Sequence record: PZ445488.1
Reading direction: 5' to 3' (one strand)
DNA length: 64,000 bases
Origin: a phage
The translations under genes were made by a program, and so were the position numbers. Shown here one piece after another: positions 7,445 to 64,000 of this stretch (within the stretch, counting starts at the first letter, position 1; each line of letters begins with the position of its first letter). Below the pieces are notes generated by a model, which was not told where the DNA came from, ran no database searches, and was given only the letters and a program-made list of their open reading frames with translations.

Positions 7445-8257
7445 ATGATCAAAGAACAACTTTTGAAAGAAGCTCAGAATATCGAGACTTCAGTTGCTCT
7501 TAATAGTGTTTTCGAATCAGTAGAACTGTCTCCGGACGTTAAAGCTAATTTCAGCACTGTATTCGAAGCCACCGTTAAGCAGGAAGCAGTCAAACTAGCT
7601 GAATCTCATATCAAAGCTATCGCCGAAAAAGCCGAAGAAGAAGTTGAAAAGGCTAAAGAAGATGCTGAAGAGAAAGCTGATAAAAAATTGGCTGAACAAG
7701 CTTCTAAATTCCTGGACCATCTTGCAAAAGAATGGCTCGCAGAAAACCAAATCGCAGTTGATAAAGGCATTAAAGCTGATTTGTTCGAATCCATGCTTGG
7801 TGGTCTGAAAGAACTGTTTGTTGAACATAACGTTGTTGTTCCAGAAGAATCTGTAGATGTTGTAGCAGAAATGGAAGAAGAGCTGGCCGAACATAAAGAA
7901 GAAACCGCTCGTTTGTTCGAAGAAGTTACCAAACGTGATGCATATATCAATTACGTTCAGCGTGAAACCGCTATTAATGAAAGCGTAAAAGACCTGACTG
8001 AATCTCAGAAAGAAAAAGTTATTGGCCTGGTTGAAGGTATGGATTATTCTGACGCATTTGGTACTAAGTTAACTGCTATTGTAGAAATGGTTAAAGGTTC
8101 TACTAAAGAAGAAGCCGCTATTACCGAAAGTATAAATACAGTTGACAATGACGCTGCCGGTCTTAATTTTGTTGCCGAAGCAGTTGACACTACCACAACT
8201 CAGGTAGAACAGAATTCTAATGTAAGTTTATATGCGAAAGTCGCATCTCGTTTCTAA
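7445..8257 (+). CDS. 22: prohead scaffolding core protein (gp22)
   Basis: 270-aa acidic, helical, Glu/Lys-rich ORF; T4 gp22 (269 aa) position and composition. Confidence 0.9.
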   Translation: MIKEQLLKEAQNIETSVALNSVFESVELSPDVKANFSTVFEATVKQEAVKLAESHIKAIAEKAEEEVEKAKEDAEEKADKKLAEQASKFLDHLAKEWLAENQIAVDKGIKADLFESMLGGLKELFVEHNVVVPEESVDVVAEMEEELAEHKEETARLFEEVTKRDAYINYVQRETAINESVKDLTESQKEKVIGLVEGMDYSDAFGTKLTAIVEMVKGSTKEEAAITESINTVDNDAAGLNFVAEAVDTTTTQVEQNSNVSLYAKVASRF

Positions 8258-52105: not shown

Positions 52106-55100
52106 ATGGCCGACATCAAACGTAAGTTCAGAGCCGAAGACGGTCTGGACGCCGGTGGCGACAAGATTGTTAACGTAGCATTAGCCGACCGTACAGTAGG
52201 TACTGATGGCGTAAACGTTGACTTCCTGGTACAAGAAAACACCGTTCAAGTATATGATTCTACGCGTGGATACAACAAAGGATTTGTTGTTCTTTATGAC
52301 AACCGTTTATATCAAGCAATAAATGATATCGTGTCTCCTTCCGGGGCATTTAACCTTTTACAATGGCGTGCAGTTCGTACCGATGCACAATGGATAACTG
52401 TCGCTTCTGGGACTTATCAACTTTCTTCAGGTGAATCGATTTCGGTTAACACTGGTGCCGGCAATGATATGGTTTTTACATTGCCAAATACTCCAGTTGA
52501 TGGTGATACTGTTGTTTTGGCTGATATTGGTGGACGAACCGGGACAGTTAAAGTACAGATTAACGCGTCTGTACAGAGTATTTTAAACTTTAGAGGTGAA
52601 CAAGTTCGTACGGTTTTAATGACGCGCCCACGTTCACAACTATTGTTTGTGTTTAGTAATCGTTTGTGGCAGATGTATATTACCGATTATGGTAAAGAAT
52701 CAATCACTGTTACACCTGCGACACCATATCAAGCACAAGCAAATGATTTTATCGTTCGTCGTTTTACTAGTGCAGCACCAATCAACATTACACTTCCACG
52801 TAATGCTAACAACGGTGATATAATCAGCCTAGTCGATTTAGATAGATTAAACCCACTGTATCATACATTTGTTAAAACATTTGATGATACAACGTCTATT
52901 GGTGAAGTCGGGACTCATATTGCCGAAGGCAGAAATGACTCTGACGCGTTTTTTGTTTTTGATGCTGCAAATAGTTTATGGCGTATATGGGAAGGCGACC
53001 AGAAATCGCGTCTTCGTATTATCCGTGCGGATTCAAATATTCGTCCAAATGAAGAAGTTCTTATTTTTGGCACAAATAACGCTACAACCGGAACTATTAA
53101 TCTTACGCTGCCTACCGGAATTTTGAGTGGTGACACTGTTAAAATTTCAATGAACTACATGCGTAAAGGTCAAACAGTAAAAATTAAAGCTGCCGAAGGT
53201 GATACAATTGCTTCCACTGTTGCATTGCTTCAGTTCCCTAAACGTTCTGAATATCCACCTGATGCTCAATGGGTCTCTGTTACTGAACTAGAATTCAATG
53301 GCACTACTTCATATGTTCCTGTATTAGAATTAGCGTATATCGAAGACACCGTTGCTGGTACACGTTATTGGGTTGTGCAACAGAATGTCCCTACAGTAGA
53401 ACGTGTTGATGCTGGAACTGATGCTACACGAGCTCGTTTAGGTGTTATTGCTCTTGCTACTCAAGCGCAAGCAAATGTTGATTTAGAGAATACTCCAGCT
53501 AAAGAAGTGGCTATTACTCCTGAAACGTTGGCAAATCGTACAGCAACTGAAGCTCGACGTGGTATCGCTAAAATTGCTACAACAGCACAAGTTAACCAGA
53601 ATTCCACAGCAACATTTGTGGATGATACTATTGTTACGCCTAAAAAACTAAATGAGCGTACAGCAACTGAAACTCGTCGTGGTCTTGCTGAAATTGCTAC
53701 TCAGGCTGAAACAGATGCTGGTCTTGACGACACAACGATTATTACACCTAAGAAATTACAGGCACGTCAGGGTTCCGAAACACTATCTGGTATAGTTAAA
53801 TATGTATCAACTACTTCTGCTACTCCTGCTGAAACTCGTGGGACCGCAGGCACTAACGTTTATAATAAAACCGTAAATAATTTAACTATTTCTCCTAAAG
53901 CCCTTGACCAATATAAAGCAACTTATGCTCAACAAGGTGCGGTAATTTTAGCTATTGATAGTGAAGTAATTGCCGGACAATCTCAGTCTGGATACTCTCA
54001 CGCTGTAGTAACTCCTGAAACACTACATAAGAAAACTTCTACTGATGGACGTATTGGTTTAATTGAAATTGCTACGCAAGCAGAAACTAACACTGGAACT
54101 GATTATACTAGAGCAGTAACGCCTAAGACGTTAAATGATAGGAAAGCTACGGAAGGATTATCCGGCATAGCCGAAATTGCTACGCAAGTTGAATTTGATA
54201 CTGGAACTGATGATACTCGTATCTCGTCTCCACTGAAAATTAAAACTCATTTTAATTCTTCTGACCGTACCAGTGTTAATTCTGATTCCGGACTTATTGA
54301 AGAAGGAACCTTGTGGAACCATTATACTCTTGATATTTCTAAAGCAAATGAAACACAACGCGGTACGCTTCGCGTAGCGACCCAAGCAGAATCTAATGCA
54401 GGAACTTTAGATGATGTTCTTATTACTCCTAAAAAGCTTTTAGGAACTAAGTCCACTGAAACGTCTGAAGGCGTGATTAAGGTTGCTACTCAGGCTGAAA
54501 CTGTAACAGGAACTTCTGCTAATACTGCTGTATCTCCTAAGAATTTAAAATGGATTGTCCAGAATGAACCAACATGGGCTGCTACTACTGCAATAAGAGG
54601 TTTTGTTAAAACTTCATCTGGTTCAATTACATTCGTTGGTAATGATACAGTTGGTTCAACACAACCTTTAGAATCATATGAAAAAAATAGCTATGCTATA
54701 TCTCCATATGAATTAAACCGTGTACTTGCTAACTATTTGCCATTGAAAGCTAAAGCCGTAGATAGTAATCTGTTAGATGGTCTAGATTCTCTTCAGTTCA
54801 TCCGTAGAGACATCGACCAGACGGTTAATGGTTCTTTAAGTCTTACTAAACAGACCAACCTGAGTGCTCCTTTAGTATCTACAAGCACTGCTTCTTTTGG
54901 GTCCGAAGCATCTGTTACTCGTAGATTAACTCTTAATGACTCTAGCGGTTCCGAAATAGTTTTCACTAAAGGAACCCAATCTCTTAGTAATAAAGAGAAT
55001 TTCGTTGTTAGAGCATGGGGTAATAGCTCTACAGATGGTGCCCGTGATACAGTATTTGAAGCTGGTGACGAAACCGGATACCATTTCTATTCTCAGCGCG

Positions 55101-55939
55101 CTTCTGATAATAAAGTATCATTTAATATTAATGGAACACTTTATTCAACAGGTATTGTTTCTACAAATGGATTAAATGTTACAGGTGTTTCTACCTTTAC
55201 CGGGCCTATTAGTGCTACAGGTGAAATTGTTTCTAGTTCTCCTATTGCATTCAGAGCTATTAACGGTAACTATGGTGTTATGCTTTATAATGCTGGTGAC
55301 AATTCTTATATTGCATTAACTAACTCAGGTGACCAGACTGGGACGTTTAATAACTTACGCCCGATCACGATTAACAATGCCACAGGACTGGTTCGTCTTG
55401 ACAACGGTGTTCAAATCACAAGTGGTGCAACAATAACTACCGGCGGGTTAACTGTAAATAACAGGATTATTTCTAACGGCGTTAAAACTGCCACGGTTTA
55501 TACCGATAAACCAACAGCTTCTACTGTAGGTTTTTGGTCTATTGACATTAACGATTCTGCCGTATATAGCCAATTCCCTGGATACTGGACGCGTGATAAC
55601 AAAGGTAACCGTGACCAAGAAATTAAATATCCTGGTACTTTGACTCAATTCGGCAATAGCTTAGATTCGCTTTATCAGGATTGGATTTGTTATCCTACAG
55701 GTGCAAATGGTGGTAGTATTCGTTATACTCGTACCTGGCAGAAAAATAAAGATGCTTGGACTTCATTTGCAATGGTATTTGATAGTGGCAACCCACCTTC
55801 ACCTAGCGATGTCGGTGCTATCCCGTCTGATAATGCTGTTATTGGAAACCTTACTATTCGAGACTTCTTACAATTAGGAAATGTGAGAATTGTTCCAGAC
55901 CCGGTTAACAAAACAGTTAAATTTATATGGGTTGAATAA
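52106..55939 (+). CDS. 34: long tail fiber proximal subunit gp34
   Basis: 1277-aa ORF; T4 gp34 size (1289 aa) and position; repeated beta-structure motifs. Confidence 0.93.
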   Translation: MADIKRKFRAEDGLDAGGDKIVNVALADRTVGTDGVNVDFLVQENTVQVYDSTRGYNKGFVVLYDNRLYQAINDIVSPSGAFNLLQWRAVRTDAQWITVASGTYQLSSGESISVNTGAGNDMVFTLPNTPVDGDTVVLADIGGRTGTVKVQINASVQSILNFRGEQVRTVLMTRPRSQLLFVFSNRLWQMYITDYGKESITVTPATPYQAQANDFIVRRFTSAAPINITLPRNANNGDIISLVDLDRLNPLYHTFVKTFDDTTSIGEVGTHIAEGRNDSDAFFVFDAANSLWRIWEGDQKSRLRIIRADSNIRPNEEVLIFGTNNATTGTINLTLPTGILSGDTVKISMNYMRKGQTVKIKAAEGDTIASTVALLQFPKRSEYPPDAQWVSVTELEFNGTTSYVPVLELAYIEDTVAGTRYWVVQQNVPTVERVDAGTDATRARLGVIALATQAQANVDLENTPAKEVAITPETLANRTATEARRGIAKIATTAQVNQNSTATFVDDTIVTPKKLNERTATETRRGLAEIATQAETDAGLDDTTIITPKKLQARQGSETLSGIVKYVSTTSATPAETRGTAGTNVYNKTVNNLTISPKALDQYKATYAQQGAVILAIDSEVIAGQSQSGYSHAVVTPETLHKKTSTDGRIGLIEIATQAETNTGTDYTRAVTPKTLNDRKATEGLSGIAEIATQVEFDTGTDDTRISSPLKIKTHFNSSDRTSVNSDSGLIEEGTLWNHYTLDISKANETQRGTLRVATQAESNAGTLDDVLITPKKLLGTKSTETSEGVIKVATQAETVTGTSANTAVSPKNLKWIVQNEPTWAATTAIRGFVKTSSGSITFVGNDTVGSTQPLESYEKNSYAISPYELNRVLANYLPLKAKAVDSNLLDGLDSLQFIRRDIDQTVNGSLSLTKQTNLSAPLVSTSTASFGSEASVTRRLTLNDSSGSEIVFTKGTQSLSNKENFVVRAWGNSSTDGARDTVFEAGDETGYHFYSQRASDNKVSFNINGTLYSTGIVSTNGLNVTGVSTFTGPISATGEIVSSSPIAFRAINGNYGVMLYNAGDNSYIALTNSGDQTGTFNNLRPITINNATGLVRLDNGVQITSGATITTGGLTVNNRIISNGVKTATVYTDKPTASTVGFWSIDINDSAVYSQFPGYWTRDNKGNRDQEIKYPGTLTQFGNSLDSLYQDWICYPTGANGGSIRYTRTWQKNKDAWTSFAMVFDSGNPPSPSDVGAIPSDNAVIGNLTIRDFLQLGNVRIVPDPVNKTVKFIWVE

Positions 55940-55947
55940 GAGGTTAT

Positions 55948-57072
55948 ATGGAAAAATTTATGGCAAGGTTTGGACAGGGATACGTCCAAACGCCGTTTTT
56001 ATCGGAAAGCAATTCAGTTAGATTTAAACTAAGTATAGCGGGTTCATGCCCGCTTTCAACAACTAATCCGTATATTTTGTTCCAAAACGAGCCTTTAGGG
56101 TTGCAGTCTTTTGGTATTGGACTAAATGTTAGGGTAATAAATCCGGAAAATGGAACTATAGTTGATAGTAAATTATACAATTTTGCGCCTACAAATAATG
56201 CAACTTCGGCCGCGTTTATTTCGTTTGTTAATACATACGCAGATAATTTCATTTTCGCATTTATTTCTAATAACAAATTTAATTTGCCGCCAGAAATAAT
56301 TGGATGGTTTAAAGCTGCTGGGAGTTCAGTTATACCGTCAATTGAAGTTGCTAGTCTTGTTGATATTTCATATTCAGCGTTTTATGTTTCAGGTAAAAAT
56401 ACTATTGCATTAGAACACATAAAATACAGTAATAAGAAAACAATTTCTGATTACGCAACTCCATTAGATATTGTATATGACTCTATTGCTGATATAGGTG
56501 CTACCGGCTATCCTAGACGTACATATGAAGCTCTAGAAACGTTTTTATCTCCTGTTGGAGGAACTAACAATGAAATAAAAAGGGTGCCTACATCATCTCT
56601 TGTTACTCCTATCGCAAACTATGGATTAAAGCCTACAGATTTTCTTTATTTGAAATTTCAATTAATGGCTGATGAAGCATTACTAGAGGAAGGAACCACA
56701 AGACTTTCAATTCGTTTCTTTAAGACTCCATCTAGCTCTCCTATATTGTCTAAAGATATAAACTTTGATGGAACTGCTGGTGAATGGAAGTTATACGAAG
56801 AATACGTTGAAATACCAGCTGAAGCCGATGGCTTTACAGTATATTGTTACCGTACGGCCCCAGTCGGTCAAGGTGGACTAAGAAATGTTATTTTCACTGA
56901 AGTATCATGTAACGGAAGTATAGCAAAACCTGCCGAGTTTGGCCTAAACGGTATTCGTGCTAATTACATCGATGAATCATTAATCGGTAATGATATAATG
57001 GACTTGCCTACTCAGTTATCTAACGACACAGGTAAGGTATTTGGGCAGGAATTTAAAGAGTACACAGAATAA
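55948..57072 (+). CDS. 35: long tail fiber hinge protein gp35
   Basis: 374-aa ORF; matches T4 gp35 as recalled. Confidence 0.9.
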   Translation: MEKFMARFGQGYVQTPFLSESNSVRFKLSIAGSCPLSTTNPYILFQNEPLGLQSFGIGLNVRVINPENGTIVDSKLYNFAPTNNATSAAFISFVNTYADNFIFAFISNNKFNLPPEIIGWFKAAGSSVIPSIEVASLVDISYSAFYVSGKNTIALEHIKYSNKKTISDYATPLDIVYDSIADIGATGYPRRTYEALETFLSPVGGTNNEIKRVPTSSLVTPIANYGLKPTDFLYLKFQLMADEALLEEGTTRLSIRFFKTPSSSPILSKDINFDGTAGEWKLYEEYVEIPAEADGFTVYCYRTAPVGQGGLRNVIFTEVSCNGSIAKPAEFGLNGIRANYIDESLIGNDIMDLPTQLSNDTGKVFGQEFKEYTE

Positions 57073-57090
57073 AGGAGACTTCGGTCTCCT
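57073..57090 (+). terminator. hairpin GGAGAC-TTCG-GTCTCC followed by TTTTCG
   Basis: member of the recurrent GAGAC/GTCTC stem family, directly after the gene 35 stop. Confidence 0.55.
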
Positions 57091-57097
57091 TTTCGCG

Positions 57098-57105
57098 TAT
57101 AAATA
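57098..57105 (+). promoter_or_regulatory. T4-type late promoter TATAAATA upstream of gene 36
   Basis: exact TATAAATA about 27 nt upstream of the gene 36 ATG. Confidence 0.6.
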
Positions 57106-57131
57106 CTTTAATATTAATAAGGAGACACGAA

Positions 57132-57788
57132 ATGGCCGATTTAAAAGCCGGAAGTACAGTTGGTGGTTCCGTCATATGGCATCAAGGCAATTTTCCTTTA
57201 ATGCCAGCTGGCGATGACATCCTATATAAAACATTTAAATTATACACCGAATATAACAAGCCAAAAGCGGCTGATAACGATTTCGTATCTAAAGCAAATG
57301 GTGGGACATATCTCAAAAAGGTAATCTTTAACGAAGGTGTTGCAGTCAAAACAGCAGATGACCAAACGAATGGTATTTTTTCTGGTGGTGGTGACGCCGC
57401 GACATTCGACCAAACAAACATGGATATTGTTTCGTGGTATGGTATTGGGTTTAAATCATCTCAAGGTACAGGTGAAAGAACTGTTGTAATTGATACTCGC
57501 ACCGGTAATATAAGTTCTAAAGGCGTTATTGAAGCATCTCAATTCAGAGCCACAACGTTAGCACCTTTAAATAATTACGACCTTACTCGCAAAGATTATG
57601 TTGATAGTCAAATAAATACAGTTAATGCTAATGCAAACAGTCGTGTACTCCGTTCAGGAGATACGATGACCGGCGCGCTAACAGCCCCAAACTTTTTCTC
57701 ACAGAATCCTGCATCTCAACCATCGCATGTTCCACGATTTGACCAAATTGTTATTAAGGATTCTGTTCAAGATTTCGGCTATTATTAA
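57132..57788 (+). CDS. 36: long tail fiber distal connector gp36
   Basis: 218-aa ORF; T4 gp36 size (221 aa) and position. Confidence 0.9.
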   Translation: MADLKAGSTVGGSVIWHQGNFPLMPAGDDILYKTFKLYTEYNKPKAADNDFVSKANGGTYLKKVIFNEGVAVKTADDQTNGIFSGGGDAATFDQTNMDIVSWYGIGFKSSQGTGERTVVIDTRTGNISSKGVIEASQFRATTLAPLNNYDLTRKDYVDSQINTVNANANSRVLRSGDTMTGALTAPNFFSQNPASQPSHVPRFDQIVIKDSVQDFGYY

Positions 57789-57796
57789 GAGGACTT

Positions 57797-60700
57797 ATGG
57801 CTACTTTAAAACAAATACAATTTAAAAGAAGCAAAACTGCAGGAGCACGTCCTGCCGCTTCAGTATTAGCCGAAGGTGAATTGGCTATAAACTTAAAAGA
57901 CCGTGTACTTTTTACTAAAGATGACCAAGGAAATATTATTGATCTGGGTTTTGCTAAAGGTGGTAGTATTGACGGGAATGTTATTCATATAGGAAACTAT
58001 AATCAAACTGGTGATTATACTTTAAATGGCGTCTTCACTCAGACTGGTAATTTTAATTTAACTGGTATTGCTCGAGTAACTCGCGATATTATTGCCGCTG
58101 GGCCGATTATGACTGAAGGCGGAGAACTTATTACAAAAAGTTCAGGTACATCACATGTTCGTTTTCATGATTCAGCTGACCGTGAACGTGGAATCATTTT
58201 TTCTCCTGCTAATGATGGATTAACTACACAAGTAATTAATATTAGAGTTCAAGACTACGCAGCTGGTAGCGAAAGCACCTATGCATTTTCAGGCAGTGGA
58301 CAATTTATTTCACCTGAAGTATCGGCATGGAAATCTATGTCAACTCCTCAGATTTTGACTGACAAAGTCATTACAGACGGGAAGAAGGCAGGTGATTATG
58401 ACATCTATTCATTAGCAAATAATAATTCTAATACAGATAAAAATAATTTACGTGTTGTACGTACCGACCCAGCGGCCGCAATGCTCCATGAAATTTGTGA
58501 AAACAACGGCATCAGTTGGTATTCTGGTTCAACCCCTACTGATTATATGTTATCTTTTGCTTATTCCGGCGGTTTTCAAGCAGGCCATTCGATTGCAGTA
58601 GGTATGGAATCAGGGCCTATGACATATTCAACCTTAGGTAAAGGTTCTATTGTTCTTGGGGATAATGATACTGGATTTAAATGGCATCAAGACGGATATT
58701 ATTTCAGCGTTAATAATGGAACAAAAACGTTTTTATTTAATCCTAGCGAAACAACTAGCCTAAGAAAATTTGTAGCTGGATATTCTACTAATGGAACCGA
58801 TTTAACTACTCCTCCAACTGAAAACTATGCTCTTGCTACTGTTGTGACATATCACGATAATAACGCGTTTGGAGATGGTCAGACTCTTTTGGGATATTAT
58901 CAAGGCGGTAACTATCATCACTATTTCCGTGGTAAGGGTACCACAAACATTAATACTCATGGCGGTTTGTTGGTTACTCCTGGTAATATTGATGTTATTG
59001 GCGGTTCTGTTAATATAGATGGTAGAAATAATTCTTCTACACTAATGTTTAGAGGCAACACAACAGGATACAGCTCGGTTGATAATATGGATATTAAAGT
59101 TTGGGGTAATACGTTTGTTGATCCAAGCGGAGGTATCCGTAAAAACATTATGGAAATTTCTGATGCAACTAGCTGGATGAGCTATATTCAAAGACTTACT
59201 ACTGGCGAAGTAGAAATGAACGTTAATGGTTCATTTGAATCATCTGGTGTTACTGCTGGAGATAGAGGAGTTCACACAACAGGTGAAATTTCATCTGGAG
59301 CAGTGAATGCTCTTCGTATTTGGAACGCAGATTATGGAGCCATTTTTAGACGTTCAGAAGGAAGTCTTCATATTATTCCAACTGCTTATGGCGAAGGCAA
59401 AGATGGCGATATTGGTCCACTTCGCCCATTTAGTATGGCTTTAGATACTGGTAAAGTTACTATTCCAGATTTACAATCAAGTTACAATACGTTCGCTGCT
59501 AACGGTTATATTAAATTTGTTGGTCATGGAGCGGGTGCCGGCGGTTATGACATTCAATATGCTCAAGCGGCTCCTATTTTCCAGGAAATTGATGATGATG
59601 CTGTAAGCAAATATTATCCTATTGTTAAACAGAAGTTTTTAAACGGTAAATCTGTTTGGTCTTTAGGTACCGAAATTGAATCAGGTACATTCGTTATTCA
59701 TCATCTGAAAGAAGATGGTTCACAAGGCCATACATCAAGATTTAATATGGATGGTACAGTTAATTTCCCTGATAATGTTCTGGTCGGTGGTGGTGAAGCT
59801 GCTATTGCTCGTAATGGTAATATTTTCTCGGATATTTGGAAAACGTTTACTTCTGCAGGCGACGTAACTAATATTCGCGATGCAATAGCTACTCGTGTTG
59901 CCAAAGAAGGTGACACGATGACAGGTCGTTTAACTCTTAAAACCAACGCAGATGCTGTTGTTATTGATTATCCGGCAGATGAAGCGGGTTATGTTAAGGG
60001 TAAAAAAGGTGGTGCTGATAACTGGTATGTCGGTAACGGTGGTGCTGATGATGGTTTAGCCTTCTGGAGCTTCCAATCCAAAGGCGGTATTAATATTAAC
60101 CCTAATGGCGAGGTTATTCTATCTCCACAGGGCACTAGTATATTCAATATAAACCGCGACCGTATTCATATGAATGGTTCCAACTGGATTGCACATAAAT
60201 CTGGTAAGTGGGGCGACCAATGGGGCTTAGAAGCACCTTATTTCCTTGATTTTGGTAACGTTGGCGAAGACAGTTATTATCCTATCATTAAAGGCCGATC
60301 TTTAATTAGTGGTCAGGGTTATACTACTTCTGTTGAATTAGGCCTGCGTCGTACTCCACAAACATGGGGACAAGCGATAATTCGAGTTGGTAATGCCGAA
60401 GGCGCTGACGGTCCTGTAGGTATTTTCGAATTCCACTCTGACGGTAGATTTTACTCCCCGACTTTAGTCCAGACTCCTGCAATTGGTGTTGGTACTGATA
60501 ATGGACTTGGTGCTCCAAGTATTGCAATCGGTGATAATGACACGGGCTTATCACATGGTGGTGACGGTCGAGTTAATATGGTTGCTAACGGGATTCATAT
60601 TGCATCTTGGTCTAACTCTTACCATACTCATGAAGGTCTTTGGGGTACCAATGGTGCTTTGTGGACTGAAACAGGAAGAGCTATTATTTCTTTTGGCCAT

Positions 60701-61090
60701 TTAGTCCAACAAAGCGACGCCTATTCTACATATGTTCGAGACGTTTATGTTCGTTCTGATATTCGTGTTAAAAAAGACCTTGTTAAATTTGAAAATGCTT
60801 CCGAGAAGCTTTCTAAAATTAACGGTTACACTTATATGCAGAAACGTGGAACTGACGAAGAAGGTAACCAGAAATGGGAACCTAACGCCGGTTTGATAGC
60901 TCAAGAAGTTCAAGCTATTTTACCAGAATTAGTTGAAGGCGACCCTGATGGTGAAGCTTTACTTCGTTTGAACTATAACGGCGTAATTGGTTTAAATACA
61001 GCTGCAATCAATGAGCATACTGCAGAAATTGCAGAACTTAAGTCAGAGATTGAAGAGCTTAAAAATTTAGTTAAATCATTGTTAAAATAA
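57797..61090 (+). CDS. 37: long tail fiber distal subunit gp37 with C-terminal intramolecular chaperone-like domain
   Basis: 1097-aa ORF with T4 gp37-like N-terminus (MATLKQIQFKRSKTAGARPAAS...); the last about 120 aa (...NGYTYMQKRGTDEEGNQKWEPNAGLIAQEVQAILPELVEG...NYNGVIGLNTAAINEHTAEIAELK) resemble autoproteolytic tail fiber chaperone domains. Confidence 0.92.
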   Translation: MATLKQIQFKRSKTAGARPAASVLAEGELAINLKDRVLFTKDDQGNIIDLGFAKGGSIDGNVIHIGNYNQTGDYTLNGVFTQTGNFNLTGIARVTRDIIAAGPIMTEGGELITKSSGTSHVRFHDSADRERGIIFSPANDGLTTQVINIRVQDYAAGSESTYAFSGSGQFISPEVSAWKSMSTPQILTDKVITDGKKAGDYDIYSLANNNSNTDKNNLRVVRTDPAAAMLHEICENNGISWYSGSTPTDYMLSFAYSGGFQAGHSIAVGMESGPMTYSTLGKGSIVLGDNDTGFKWHQDGYYFSVNNGTKTFLFNPSETTSLRKFVAGYSTNGTDLTTPPTENYALATVVTYHDNNAFGDGQTLLGYYQGGNYHHYFRGKGTTNINTHGGLLVTPGNIDVIGGSVNIDGRNNSSTLMFRGNTTGYSSVDNMDIKVWGNTFVDPSGGIRKNIMEISDATSWMSYIQRLTTGEVEMNVNGSFESSGVTAGDRGVHTTGEISSGAVNALRIWNADYGAIFRRSEGSLHIIPTAYGEGKDGDIGPLRPFSMALDTGKVTIPDLQSSYNTFAANGYIKFVGHGAGAGGYDIQYAQAAPIFQEIDDDAVSKYYPIVKQKFLNGKSVWSLGTEIESGTFVIHHLKEDGSQGHTSRFNMDGTVNFPDNVLVGGGEAAIARNGNIFSDIWKTFTSAGDVTNIRDAIATRVAKEGDTMTGRLTLKTNADAVVIDYPADEAGYVKGKKGGADNWYVGNGGADDGLAFWSFQSKGGININPNGEVILSPQGTSIFNINRDRIHMNGSNWIAHKSGKWGDQWGLEAPYFLDFGNVGEDSYYPIIKGRSLISGQGYTTSVELGLRRTPQTWGQAIIRVGNAEGADGPVGIFEFHSDGRFYSPTLVQTPAIGVGTDNGLGAPSIAIGDNDTGLSHGGDGRVNMVANGIHIASWSNSYHTHEGLWGTNGALWTETGRAIISFGHLVQQSDAYSTYVRDVYVRSDIRVKKDLVKFENASEKLSKINGYTYMQKRGTDEEGNQKWEPNAGLIAQEVQAILPELVEGDPDGEALLRLNYNGVIGLNTAAINEHTAEIAELKSEIEELKNLVKSLLK

Positions 61091-61094
61091 TAAG

Positions 61095-61110
61095 AGGGGC
61101 TGAAGCCCCT
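61095..61110 (+). terminator. hairpin AGGGGC-TGAA-GCCCCT after gene 37
   Basis: 6-bp GC stem with tetraloop 5 nt after the gene 37 stop; the SD for gene 38 follows, so it probably attenuates only. Confidence 0.4.
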
Positions 61111-61121
61111 TGGAGGTTTAT

Positions 61122-61895
61122 ATGGCAGTTGAAGGACCGTGGGTAGGATGGTCTGCGAGAGTACAAACTGGAGACCCTTGGATGGGTGGTGCCGCACAGA
61201 GATTGAGAATGGGAATTCCGTTTTGGATGAGTAATATGATAGGTCGATCTGTTGAAGTAATTCACACGCTTGGAGCAGACCATAACTTCAATGGCCAATG
61301 GTTCCGAGATAGATGTTTTGAGGCAGGTAGTGCACCTATAGTGTTTAATATCACTGGAAATTTAGTATCATATAGTAAAGATGTTCCATTATTCTTTATG
61401 TATGGCGATACGCCAAATGAATATGTTACTTTGAATATTCACGGTGGAGTTCATATGTGGGGACGAGGTGGTAACGGTACTGTAAACGGAAACCCAGGCA
61501 CAAATGGCGGCGATGTAATCCAAAATGATATCGGCGGAAGACTTCGTATTTGGAACTATGGCGTTATTGCATCAGGCGGCGGCGGTGGTGGTGCGGTGTC
61601 ATTACAGAATAGCTGGGCACCAAATGCTACAGCAGGTGGCGGTGGCGGCAGACCATTTGGCCTCGGCGGAGGCGGCGTTAATTGGCCTGGTGGTAATGCT
61701 AGTTATGACGCCCCGGGCGGCGCCGGTTACACTTCCCAATTCGGCGGTGGTAATGGCGGGGATGCTGGAGGTCGGGGCGGAGATGGATGGGGCAAACACT
61801 TATCTAGATCTGGGGGTGGTGCTCCTGGTAGAGCAGTATTCGGAAGTTCACCGACATGGGGTGCTACAGGCACAATTTACGGCTCCTGGATTTAA
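61122..61895 (+). CDS. 38: T2-type receptor-recognising adhesin gp38 (glycine-rich-motif tip protein)
   Basis: 257-aa product from the ATG after SD GGAGG; conserved N-terminus ([10 protein letters not shown]...[32 protein letters not shown]) as in T2/K3 gp38, then poly-Gly blocks (GGGGGG, GGGGG, GLGGGG, GGGNGG) separating variable segments. Confidence 0.85.
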
Positions 61896-61913
61896 ACGAT
61901 AATACCTCTCAAT

Positions 61914-61921
61914 TATAAATA
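61914..61921 (+). promoter_or_regulatory. T4-type late promoter TATAAATA upstream of gene t
   Basis: exact TATAAATA about 20 nt upstream of the holin ATG. Confidence 0.6.
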
Positions 61922-61940
61922 TTGATAAATGGGAGGTAAT

Positions 61941-62600
61941 ATGGCAGCACCTAGAATATCATTTTCGCCTAGTGATATTTTATTTGGGTTGCTAGACCGC
62001 ATTTTCAAAGATAACGCCTCTGGAAATATTCTTATTTCCAGAGTTGCTGTTGTAGTTCTTTTGTTCCTAATGGCACTAATATGGTACAAAGGGAATATTT
62101 TTATGGATTATTACGTGAGGTCGAAATATGATACTTACACAGAAGTAATTCAAAAAGAAAGAAATACACGATTTGAATCTGCGGCTTTAGAACAACTACA
62201 AATAGTCCACGTCACATCAAGGGCGGATTTTAGTTCGGTGTATTCTTTCAGACCTAAAAATCTAAATTATTTCGTCGACCTTATTGCGTATGAAGGTAAG
62301 TTACCTAGCACAGTAACTGAAAAATCTATGGGAGGATTTCCTGTTGATAAAACGACAGCAGAATATTCGGTCCATTTAAGTGGACTTCACTTTACTTCTA
62401 AAACAGATTTTGCTTTCTTACCTACCAAATCAAAAACTCCGGAACTGGCGTATATGTATAGTTGTCCTTACTTCAATTTGGATAACATATATGCGGGAAC
62501 TGTTTCTATGTATTGGTATAAGGGATCGGATGTGCTAAATGAAGAACGCTTGGCTGCAATATGCAACCAAGCAGCAAGGATATTAGGGCGGGCTAAATAA
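61941..62600 (+). CDS. t: holin T
   Basis: 219-aa product from the second ATG (after SD GGGAGG); matches T4 holin T (218 aa) as recalled; single N-terminal TM segment and large periplasmic domain. Confidence 0.92.
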   Translation: MAAPRISFSPSDILFGLLDRIFKDNASGNILISRVAVVVLLFLMALIWYKGNIFMDYYVRSKYDTYTEVIQKERNTRFESAALEQLQIVHVTSRADFSSVYSFRPKNLNYFVDLIAYEGKLPSTVTEKSMGGFPVDKTTAEYSVHLSGLHFTSKTDFAFLPTKSKTPELAYMYSCPYFNLDNIYAGTVSMYWYKGSDVLNEERLAAICNQAARILGRAK

Positions 62601-62873
62601 TTAGTTGTTAGAATACATCGTCAAATGGCGATAAATATTTTCAAAACCTTCATTGAATTCACTAATCAGTGTTTTCTTTTCTTCGGCAGTTAAATTCGTA
62701 ATTAGTTTTCTGAACGAATTCTGATTTAGCTGCCGACCATCTTTTTTAATTCCAATCTCATTCAAGAATCCGATGAAATTTGCTCGGTCTTCAACAATAT
62801 CTTCCCTCGAGAATTTAATCAAAATAGAAGCAACCGTAATAATTTCACGTACAATTTCAATATCTTTATTCAT
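62601..62873 (-). CDS. asiA: anti-sigma70 protein AsiA
   Basis: 90-aa ORF; matches T4 AsiA (90 aa) as recalled. Confidence 0.92.
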   Translation of the reverse strand: MNKDIEIVREIITVASILIKFSREDIVEDRANFIGFLNEIGIKKDGRQLNQNSFRKLITNLTAEEKKTLISEFNEGFENIYRHLTMYSNN

Positions 62874-62919
62874 AACGTTTTATTCATTCCATTTGGTTGA
62901 TATGAGTATAGTACCATTA

Positions 62920-63081
62920 TCAGTGTTGATTGTAAACAGCTTTTTCTACACTTTTAACGTAATCAGTGTAGTCTTCCTGTTCGTACGAGTGTAAGGCCAA
63001 GAACGTGGCTAATAGTTCATTATAGACTAAAGCCTCACGCTCACGTTCTGCCTCTACTACGTTCTGAAGATTATGGCTCAT
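62920..63081 (-). CDS. hypothetical protein
   Basis: 53-aa product from the internal ATG preceded by SD AAGGA; the 71-aa track ORF start is rejected. Confidence 0.35.
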   Translation of the reverse strand: MSHNLQNVVEAEREREALVYNELLATFLALHSYEQEDYTDYVKSVEKAVYNQH

Positions 63082-63082
63082 A

Positions 63083-63370
63083 TCATTCCTTATAACTATC
63101 AATGTAGTCCTGTATGTCAAAGAATGACATTTCATATTCTAGGACATTAAGAGCCCGTTCTTCAGTATAGTCAGAACCAAATACGATAGTGATTTCACCA
63201 GGCTTCATATGATTGAAATCGACACTAAAAGGAATACGAGAACATACTTCGTCTGCCATATCTGCAACAACACTACGATACACTTCTCGGTTAACCTGAT
63301 AAAGCTCTGCAAGTTCTTCACAACGAATAACAAGTTCAGTGGCAGGATTTTCTTTGATTTTAGTAAGCAT
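63083..63370 (-). CDS. hypothetical protein (asiA-motA interval)
   Basis: 95-aa product from the internal ATG of the 128-aa track ORF; the N-terminal 33 codons of the track ORF look non-coding (Arg/Asn-rich, no partner SD). Confidence 0.35.
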   Translation of the reverse strand: MLTKIKENPATELVIRCEELAELYQVNREVYRSVVADMADEVCSRIPFSVDFNHMKPGEITIVFGSDYTEERALNVLEYEMSFFDIQDYIDSYKE

Positions 63371-63444
63371 AGTCTTTACCCTTATGTTTTTGTTTGCGTT
63401 TAGATTGAAGTTCTGATTTCTTCTTGTCCTTATGGACAGAAGCC

Positions 63445-63672
63445 TTATTGAAATCGTGTTTTGCCACAAGATTGTTCATAATGCTTTATAACCTCGTTTA
63501 AACATTTATCAGTAAAAGAAAACTTTTTAGCCACAGAACATTCGATAATGTGCTCTTTCAAATCTTTAGGGTCAGTATAACCCATCTCAGTAATAAAGTG
63601 GCGAATTAAAGCTTTATTCTTATCATTAACAGAATTAAAATAATCTGCTTTAGAATCAATTATTCTCATCAT
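63445..63672 (-). CDS. hypothetical protein (asiA-motA interval)
   Basis: 75-aa ORF, overlaps the upstream ORF stop. Confidence 0.4.
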   Translation of the reverse strand: MMRIIDSKADYFNSVNDKNKALIRHFITEMGYTDPKDLKEHIIECSVAKKFSFTDKCLNEVIKHYEQSCGKTRFQ

Positions 63673-63937
63673 CTAATTTCCTTAATTGATATTGCAACGA
63701 GCTAATAATTTCTTCGTTCATTTTAATATACATGTCGCGCAAGAAAGGTTTTAACCCATCACGAATAATTGCTAACGTATCACCTTTACATAAATTAACC
63801 AAATAAGGATGGTCTAAAGCATCCCAACCAGGCTGATTAGCATACATACCATAGTTTTCTTCCATCATATGATTAAGATGTTTGATATCTTGGATACGTG
63901 ATTCAATAGCATCTTTCTGAAGTTGTTTAATATTCAT
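63656..63937 (-). CDS. hypothetical protein (asiA-motA interval)
   Basis: 93-aa ORF; its ATG overlaps the stop of an upstream ORF (TAATG), SD GAGGA upstream. Confidence 0.45.
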   Translation of the reverse strand: MNIKQLQKDAIESRIQDIKHLNHMMEENYGMYANQPGWDALDHPYLVNLCKGDTLAIIRDGLKPFLRDMYIKMNEEIISSLQYQLRKLDDENN

Positions 63938-64000
63938 TAATACAGGTCCTCTGAATAAAGTTCTTTCTCACTTCCACCACGTTCAATACGTACCTGTCCA
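63937..64000 (-). CDS. 3' end of an ORF truncated by the window edge
   Basis: open frame ...GQVRIERGGSEKELYSEDLY ending in TAA that overlaps the next ATG; the 5' part lies beyond position 64000. Confidence 0.3.
   Translation of the reverse strand, partial: GQVRIERGGSEKELYSEDLY

Follow-up and report, generated by a model that had tools for sequence, protein, structure and literature searches.

The gp38 proteins of T2-type phages form an adhesin family that was reportedly described by Riede, Drexler and Henning in the 1980s. In Salmonella phage S16, the last 113 residues of the distal long-tail-fibre protein gp37 constitute an intramolecular chaperone (IMC), which is autocleaved at DLNVS^SDRRIKK (the caret marks the scissile bond), uncovering the docking face for gp38 (PMC7917993), and three conserved tryptophans of gp38 fit into pockets at the base of gp37 (PMC6851490). 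The C-terminus of gp37 is also removed by proteolysis in T2 and T6 (Trojet 2011, PMC3157838), and S16 and phages of the T2 type have been shown to carry gp38 at the tip of the fibre in the virion (PMC3157838, PMC6851490). Here we describe genes 37 and 38 (g37 and g38) of a 64,000-nucleotide stretch of phage DNA (sequence record PZ445488.1; the whole stretch is called the window), which encode a module of this kind. The gp37/gp38 tip module is real, but its structure, mechanism and receptor have already been published, prior knowledge covering four levels: the family (Trojet 2011), the structure (S16 2018; PP01 2026), the receptor-specific allele (Lutz 2025; a receptor-prediction preprint of 2026) and the receptor of Escherichia phage CEV1 (Mutalik 2020).

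From position 56019 to 64000 the window is identical to the CEV1 contig KM389393.1 (Mosigvirus) at 7981 of 7982 positions, and the 1196 nt flagged by a first-pass annotation of the sequence (60700-61895) are 100% identical to it. This GenBank contig is without annotation and marked 'UNVERIFIED', and shows no difference from the window inside the gp37/gp38 module. After CEV1, whose gp38 protein is 100% identical, the closest relatives are RB69 (95.3% identity for DNA and 98.8% for the gp38 protein), the LF82-n phages, RB51/RB68 and FL31. CEV1 is a coliphage and an RB69-like member of Mosigvirus, and we regard it as very probable that the module is the distal receptor-binding tip of its long tail fibre and belongs to the T2/T6/S16 type, combining a self-cleaving gp37 with an OmpF-binding gp38. 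In the sequence itself nothing was found that contradicts this model of a T2/T6/S16-type tip directed at OmpF.

The membership of gp38 in the T2/T6/S16 adhesin family is supported by its sequence and by a predicted fold. The Pfam family GP38 (PF05268) matches aa 45-257 over its full-length profile (positions 1-218; E 1.8e-83, 280.1 bits against a cut-off of 25), and Gp38_N (PF21721) matches aa 1-40, also at full length (E 6.5e-20, 71.3 bits against a cut-off of 25). Only two sequence relatives were found in the PDB, the gp38 proteins of PP01 (9v85, E 5e-75) and S16 (6f45_D, E 1.5e-47). Two alignments were used: A1 holds 72 sequences, namely the window gp38 and 71 homologues chosen from 110 found in a collection of 5.8 billion proteins, and A2 sets the window gp38 beside those of phages of known receptor, identity then being scored per module. 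The residues W7, W20 and W35 in the attachment domain at the N-terminus never vary in A2, and their conservation in A1 is at least 90%. An AlphaFold2 model built on the 72-sequence alignment (pLDDT 89.7, pTM 0.80) was compared with the PDB using Foldseek, which returned 9v85_C (E 1.7e-26, rmsd 1.8 Å, TM 0.80 query-normalised and 0.92 target-normalised) and 6f45_D (E 5e-23, TM 0.82/0.85), with no fold other than gp38 at E < 1. The model suggests three domains: a helical attachment domain, a beta-helix and a polyglycine-II sandwich. The 257 residues are counted from ATG 61122; the mechanical list of open reading frames (ORFs) begins gp38 four codons earlier, at TTG 61110, and the annotations of RB69, RB51, FL31 and others start at the equivalent ATG.

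The wrong label 'assembly catalyst' persists for this gp38 in many records. Taken literally, the label would reduce gp38 to an assembly chaperone of the T4 type that is missing from the virion, and would leave receptor binding to the tip of gp37 itself, a reading to which we give next to no chance. It draws on transferred annotation text ('distal long tail fiber assembly catalyst') in the GenBank records of RB69, JS10 and others, whereas the window gp38 lacks similarity to T4 gp38 (best BLASTP E 1.0), the match of the gp37 C-terminus to the receptor-binding tip of T4 gp37 (E 0.028) is a spurious 58-aa stretch, and the strong matches are to Pfam families of adhesins and to the solved structures of the S16 and PP01 adhesins. 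Moreover, the RB69 record's own note calls the 'gp38' of the T2 subfamily the adhesin, unrelated to the T4 protein, and a receptor switch following exchange of gp38 hypervariable segments has been shown for related phages (bioRxiv 10.64898/2026.04.02.716166). Since BLASTP against the T4 g37 and g38 products gave no similarity, a T4-type gp38/gp37-tip arrangement was rejected, and the T2-type architecture that the first-pass annotation had preferred to the T4 type is upheld.

The same annotation had placed at the end of gp37 a removable chaperone-like domain of roughly 120 aa, comprising a quoted peptide followed by a coiled-coil. The peptide, NGYTYMQKRGTDEEGNQKWEPNAGLIAQEVQAILPELVEG, is present in the gp37 ORF, and the protein ends in a helical, heptad-like tail, ...AINEHTAEIAELKSEIEELKNLVKSLLK. 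The Pfam profile Peptidase_S74 (PF13884, 'chaperone of endosialidase') matches gp37 aa 987-1046 (E 9.4e-13, 48.7 bits against a cut-off of 22), with 1-57 of its 58 positions covered, at the extreme C-terminus of the protein. The last 196 residues align end-to-end, to the final residue, with the S16 gp37 construct 6f45_A (HMMER, E 2.3e-46), and a weak match to the autoprocessing domain of MYRF was also obtained (7dc3, E 0.072). A chaperone-like domain is thus recognised, with a Ser/Lys motif that aligns with that of S16; its predicted length is 111 aa and not about 120.

The putative first residue of the freed 111-aa piece is Ser987 (nt 60755), and Lys992 follows five residues on (S-x4-K spacing, SDIRVK). 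Endosialidase is known for such a Ser-Lys dyad, a serine nucleophile at the scissile bond with a lysine five residues downstream. The motif VY(V/I)R^SD.R.K is kept in all eight T-even gp37 proteins compared (the window, RB69, RB51, FL31, Bas47, fPS-2, FL33 and T2), while the sequences just upstream of it differ widely among them, which argues for selection on the site. In the window, DVYVR^SDIRVKK aligns with the experimentally cleaved site of S16. The S74-like C-terminus could alternatively be a degenerate, uncleaved remnant, gp38 attaching elsewhere or to the uncleaved end. We judge this extremely unlikely: the Pfam match does span only 60 residues and cleavage in CEV1 is a prediction, yet the Ser-x4-Lys pair and the VY(V/I)R strand before it are kept across divergent T-even gp37 proteins, and those of T2 and T6 are processed (PMC3157838). 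Because the S74 match, the conserved motif, the cleavage of S16 gp37 and the processing in T2 and T6 all point the same way, we strongly infer that CEV1 gp37 is cleaved at R986/S987, after trimerisation. One protein call of 303 aa (P0088) fuses a Peptidase_S74 piece to gp38, and is probably an artefact of gene calling over the junction of g37 and g38.

Variability in gp38 is concentrated in four high-entropy hypervariable segments (HVSs), which lie between conserved glycine motifs in the 72-sequence alignment (Table 1); this glycine-rich-motif/HVS layout matches that of Trojet 2011 (PMC3157838). The glycine runs are G6 at aa 152-157, G5 at 172-176, G4 at 182-185 and G3 at both 208-210 and 231-233, and the motifs G114-G117, G152-G157 and G172-G176 with RPFG vary little or not at all. 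Glycine accounts for 25% of gp38 overall and 34% of aa 110-257, and the G+C content climbs to about 0.5 at 61250-62000, matching the glycine-rich half of gene 38, a rise that GGN codons would explain. The picture of a 257-aa protein with a conserved N-terminal attachment domain (Gp38_N and the three tryptophans), in which poly-Gly motifs bracket variable segments, had been drawn in advance and is borne out here. The variable segments had been put at about 61560-61800; they do occur there, but extend over 61479-61823, starting about 80 nt earlier and ending about 20 nt later.

Per-module identities indicate that the attachment and specificity modules of gp38 assort independently. AV119 (OmpA) and Ac3 have an attachment domain identical to that of the window and unrelated HVSs; Bas47, fPS-2 and FL33 have HVSs nearly identical to those of the window and attachment domains only 52-55% identical. 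The attachment domains of the OmpF binders range from 52 to 100% identity, HVS2 is the same throughout the OmpF group and bears no relation to that of the Tsx, OmpA and PP01-like groups, and the OmpF cassette occurs both in Mosigvirus (CEV1, RB69, FL31, Bas47) and in Tequatrovirus (RB51, fPS-2, FL33). Exchange of gp38 cassettes is already in the literature (PMC3157838, among others), and the independent assortment seen here agrees with it and is not new. In A2, the gp38 of Escherichia phage Bp7 (P0006) is of the OmpF type up to HVS4 and unrelated thereafter, as after a frameshift or sequencing error.

The HVSs also point to the receptor. Those of the window are 93-99% identical to the HVSs of RB69, RB51, FL31, Bas47 (AlbertHofmann), fPS-2 and FL33, compared with only 22-44% for T2 (FadL), T6 (Tsx), M1/FL08/AV119 (OmpA), the PP01-like KIT03 and wV7, and Ac3, so that an alignment including T2, T6 and M1, as previously suggested, separates the window from these comparators. 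OmpF dependence is documented for RB69 and RB51 (PMC3157838), for Bas47, with complementation (PMC8594841), and for fPS-2 and fPS-90 (PMC7917993); FL31 and FL33 are reported to be OmpF-dependent as well, the drop for FL31 being only about one log, under the threshold of that study (Lutz 2025, PMC12032242). CEV1 itself requires OmpF and the lipopolysaccharide (LPS) core in K-12, and OmpF in BL21 (Mutalik 2020, PMC7553319), where the evidence consists of randomly barcoded transposon sequencing (RB-TnSeq), CRISPR interference (CRISPRi), efficiency of plating (EOP) on complemented deletion strains and on the deletions themselves, and overexpression of micF. The OmpF dependence of CEV1 was seen again in O157:H7 strains (bioRxiv 10.64898/2026.07.23.740414). 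In an RB51-type gp38, the substitution Q206L in HVS3 changes the receptor from OmpF to OmpW (bioRxiv 10.64898/2026.04.02.716166), and the window gp38 keeps Gln206. The near-identity of the HVSs to those of OmpF-dependent phages, the retained Gln206 and the published genetics of CEV1 therefore support OmpF as the receptor class of this gp38, narrowing the earlier list of OmpA, OmpC, OmpF, FadL and Tsx to one.

Several points limit the case for the OmpF-binding, self-cleaving tip. The link between CEV1 gp38 and OmpF is genetic, through host knock-outs, and otherwise by homology; likewise, gp37 cleavage and the incorporation of gp38 into the virion are, for CEV1, what we infer. A requirement for FhuA has also been reported for RB69 and RB51 (Trojet 2011, PMC3157838), as has a minor effect of TolC for FL31, FL33 and FL34 (Lutz 2025, PMC12032242). 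Finally, gp38 differs from that of RB69 by three substitutions, L181I, K225N and T245S (window to RB69), two of which lie in HVSs; K225, in HVS4, is unique among the aligned OmpF-group sequences, Asn being found in RB69, RB51, FL31, Bas47, fPS-2 and FL33. The FhuA and TolC effects may act indirectly, by way of porin levels. The top hits of the CEV1 screen were ompF, its regulators and LPS-core genes, and fhuA goes unmentioned in the part of that report available (PMC7553319).

These residues enter into another reading, in which gp38 is the tip adhesin and targets, or additionally targets, OmpW, OmpC or a glycan, for example the group 4 capsule of O157, through L181, K225 and T245. That a single change in HVS3 (Q206L) suffices for the OmpF to OmpW switch in RB51-type gp38 (bioRxiv 10.64898/2026.04.02.716166), that K225 has no counterpart in the OmpF group, and that CEV1 depends on the group 4 capsule in O157:H7 (bioRxiv 10.64898/2026.07.23.740414) would fit it. 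We hold it to be very unlikely, given that CEV1, with a gp38 100% identical to that of the window, is ompF-dependent in K-12 and BL21 (PMC7553319) and in O157:H7 too (bioRxiv 10.64898/2026.07.23.740414), that Gln206 is retained, and that the capsule need is common to at least one OmpA-binding phage and so does not track the OmpF cassette (bioRxiv 10.64898/2026.07.23.740414).

With OmpF retained as the receptor, the module might still take part in an earlier step. An OmpF cassette is present in six of seven capsule-dependent T-even phages (bioRxiv 10.64898/2026.07.23.740414). Conceivably, the factor behind the group 4 capsule requirement of CEV1 in O157:H7 is the gp38 cassette of OmpF type or the distal part of the CEV1 gp37 shaft (aa ~700-950), which would recognise this capsule before OmpF in CEV1 and related OmpF-binding T-even phages, and K225, L181 and T245 could tune the capsule step or fit variants of the OmpF loops. 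We think this very unlikely, and no result of the gp37/gp38 analysis specifically favours a part of the module in the capsule dependence of CEV1. A search of the phage collection with gp37 aa 701-986 for sharing with O157-specific phages, which could have indicated a glycan-binding role, gave no signal, the matches coming from many host backgrounds; the best match of the distal shaft outside CEV1 (91%) is in phage AV111, whose gp38 is of another type.

The gp37 protein as a whole is 82% identical in amino acids to that of RB69, with mosaic divergence. Two shaft blocks are diverged, aa ~151-300 (58247-58696) and aa ~701-950 (59897-60646), at 44-78% identity (44-70% in the distal block, aa ~700-950), and the flanks, tip and IMC are 90-100% identical.

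The following mechanism is proposed. Gp37 would be synthesised as a 1097-aa precursor, in which the 111-aa C-terminal Peptidase_S74 IMC would drive trimerisation of the beta-helical fibre and would then cut itself away before Ser987 (DVYVR^SDIRVKK). The bared trimeric gp37 tip would be capped by one gp38 (the 3:1 gp37:gp38 stoichiometry is taken from the literature and not from the window sequence), docking via W7, W20 and W35 of its N-terminal helical domain. In the C-terminal half of gp38, the invariant glycine-rich motifs may fold as a polyglycine-II sandwich, whose distal hypervariable loops would attach reversibly to OmpF, the host porin. Other parts of the virion (the short tail fibres, gp12) would then account for irreversible binding and for the need of an LPS core.

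The coordinates of the module and of its neighbours are collected in Table 1. The gene order g34-g35-g36-g37-g38-t, all on the + strand, is that of the canonical T-even long-tail-fibre operon, as read from the ORF list and Pfam, and the placing of g38, directly downstream of g37 and followed by holin gene t, is common to RB69, T2, RB51 and others. Within the operon, gp35 (55948-57072) gives a borderline Pfam match to ILEI (interleukin-like EMT inducer; E 3.4e-6, 27.9 bits against a cut-off of 27).

Table 1. Genes, domains, variable segments and signals of the long-tail-fibre region of the window (HVS, hypervariable segment; IMC, intramolecular chaperone)
Feature	Coordinates	Strand	Product, sequence or position	Basis
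g34	52106-55939	+		Gp34 domains (Pfam)
g35	55948-57072	+	hinge protein gp35	
g36	57132-57788	+		Pfam Phage_T4_gp36
g37	57797-61090	+	long tail fibre distal subunit precursor, 1097 aa + stop	Pfam Gp34_trimer, gp37_trimer, Peptidase_S74
Predicted autoproteolytic site, Arg986/Ser987	60752-60757	+	DVYVR^SDIRVKK	motif conservation and S16 alignment
Predicted IMC (Peptidase_S74)	60755-61087	+	S987-K1097, 111 aa; C-terminal helix ~60995-61087	Pfam PF13884
Intercistronic stem-loop	61094-61111	+	GAGGGGC-UGAA-GCCCCUU; between g37 stop and g38 Shine-Dalgarno	G+C-rich
Shine-Dalgarno of gene 38	61112-61116	+	GGAGG	5 nt before ATG 61122
g38	61122-61895	+	predicted tail-fibre tip adhesin, 257 aa + stop	Pfam Gp38_N and GP38
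gp38 N-terminal attachment domain	61122-61253	+	aa 1-44, Trp7/Trp20/Trp35	Trp conservation
HVS1	61479-61505	+	aa 120-128, TVNGNPGTN	high column entropy; identical in all OmpF-dependent relatives
HVS2	61593-61634	+	aa 158-171, between the G6 and G5 motifs	top entropy, 2.58 bits
HVS3	61662-61754	+	aa 181-211, including Gln206 (CAA, 61737-61739)	entropy
HVS4	61770-61823	+	aa 217-234, including Lys225	entropy
T4-type late-promoter-like sequence	61914-61921	+	TATAAATA	upstream of holin gene t
Holin gene t	61929/61941-62600	+	holin	Pfam Phage_holin_T, E 2e-89

The stem-loop between g37 and g38 has a predicted energy of -12.9 kcal/mol, which is no better than chance (z -1.8; 9 of 200 shuffles fold as well). 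Its stem is kept in the relatives through compensatory changes, reading GGGGC/GCCCC in RB69, RB51 and FL31 and GGGCC/GGCCC in Bas47, and it is also kept in fPS-2, FL33 and T2; the loop is UUCG in five of the seven relatives compared and UGAA in the window. Stable C(UUCG)G intercistronic hairpins are known from T4, and the g37-g38 element resembles them. A role as terminator was rejected, no T-run following the stem and the energy not being significant against shuffles, and the element is kept as a conserved stem-loop.

Downstream of g38, the late-promoter-like sequence occupies a position at which the fPS-2 record annotates a late promoter in the equivalent intergenic region. The true start of holin t is probably ATG 61941 (219 aa), because the first ATG (61929) overlaps a GGAGG that is positioned for the second, the Pfam holin profile match starts at residue 9 of the longer ORF, and ATG 61941 gives the N-terminus MAAPRISF..., presumably as in the T holin of T4. 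The RB69 holin is annotated from the earlier ATG. It is in this gene that the sole mismatch with the CEV1 contig lies, at 62456 (G in the window, T in the contig), which makes codon 172, counted from ATG 61941, ATG (Met) in the window and ATT (Ile) in KM389393.1.

The practical gain of the analysis is a precise annotation of the window, with the predicted cleavage site, the coordinates of the HVSs and the assignment to OmpF, and these place the module among the known systems as follows. CEV1 (KM389393.1) is identical in DNA over all of gp38 and the covered part of gp37, and its receptor has been mapped (PMC7553319). RB69 (AY303349, type species of Mosigvirus) shares the gene order, the 111-aa IMC, the cleavage motif and an identical N-terminal gp38 attachment domain, and is OmpF-dependent; it differs in three gp38 substitutions, in a gp37 that is 82% identical and in the loop of the g37-g38 hairpin, UUCG as against UGAA in the window. 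T2 has the same module type, the cleavage motif NVYIR^SDIRLK and the g37-g38-t order, but its gp38 is 48% identical overall and 44% in the HVSs, its IMC measures 99 aa, and it maps to FadL in recent screens.

The closest solved structure is the receptor-binding domain of PP01 gp38 (PDB 9V85, PMC12892980), at 65% identity. The PP01-like phages KIT03 and wV7 have an N-terminal attachment type 98% identical to that of the window, whereas PP01 gp38 binds OmpC of O157 and the HVSs of the PP01-like KIT03 and wV7 are about 36% identical to those of the window. The S16 gp37-gp38 complex (PDB 6F45, Dunne et al. 2018) combines a trimeric gp37 beta-helix and autocleaved IMC with a gp38 that docks through three tryptophans and carries a beta-helix and a polyglycine-II sandwich, an architecture that the window matches in sequence and predicted fold. 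Its gp38 is 44% identical in the Foldseek alignment, with other hypervariable loops, and S16 has Ser where the window has Arg just ahead of the scissile bond.

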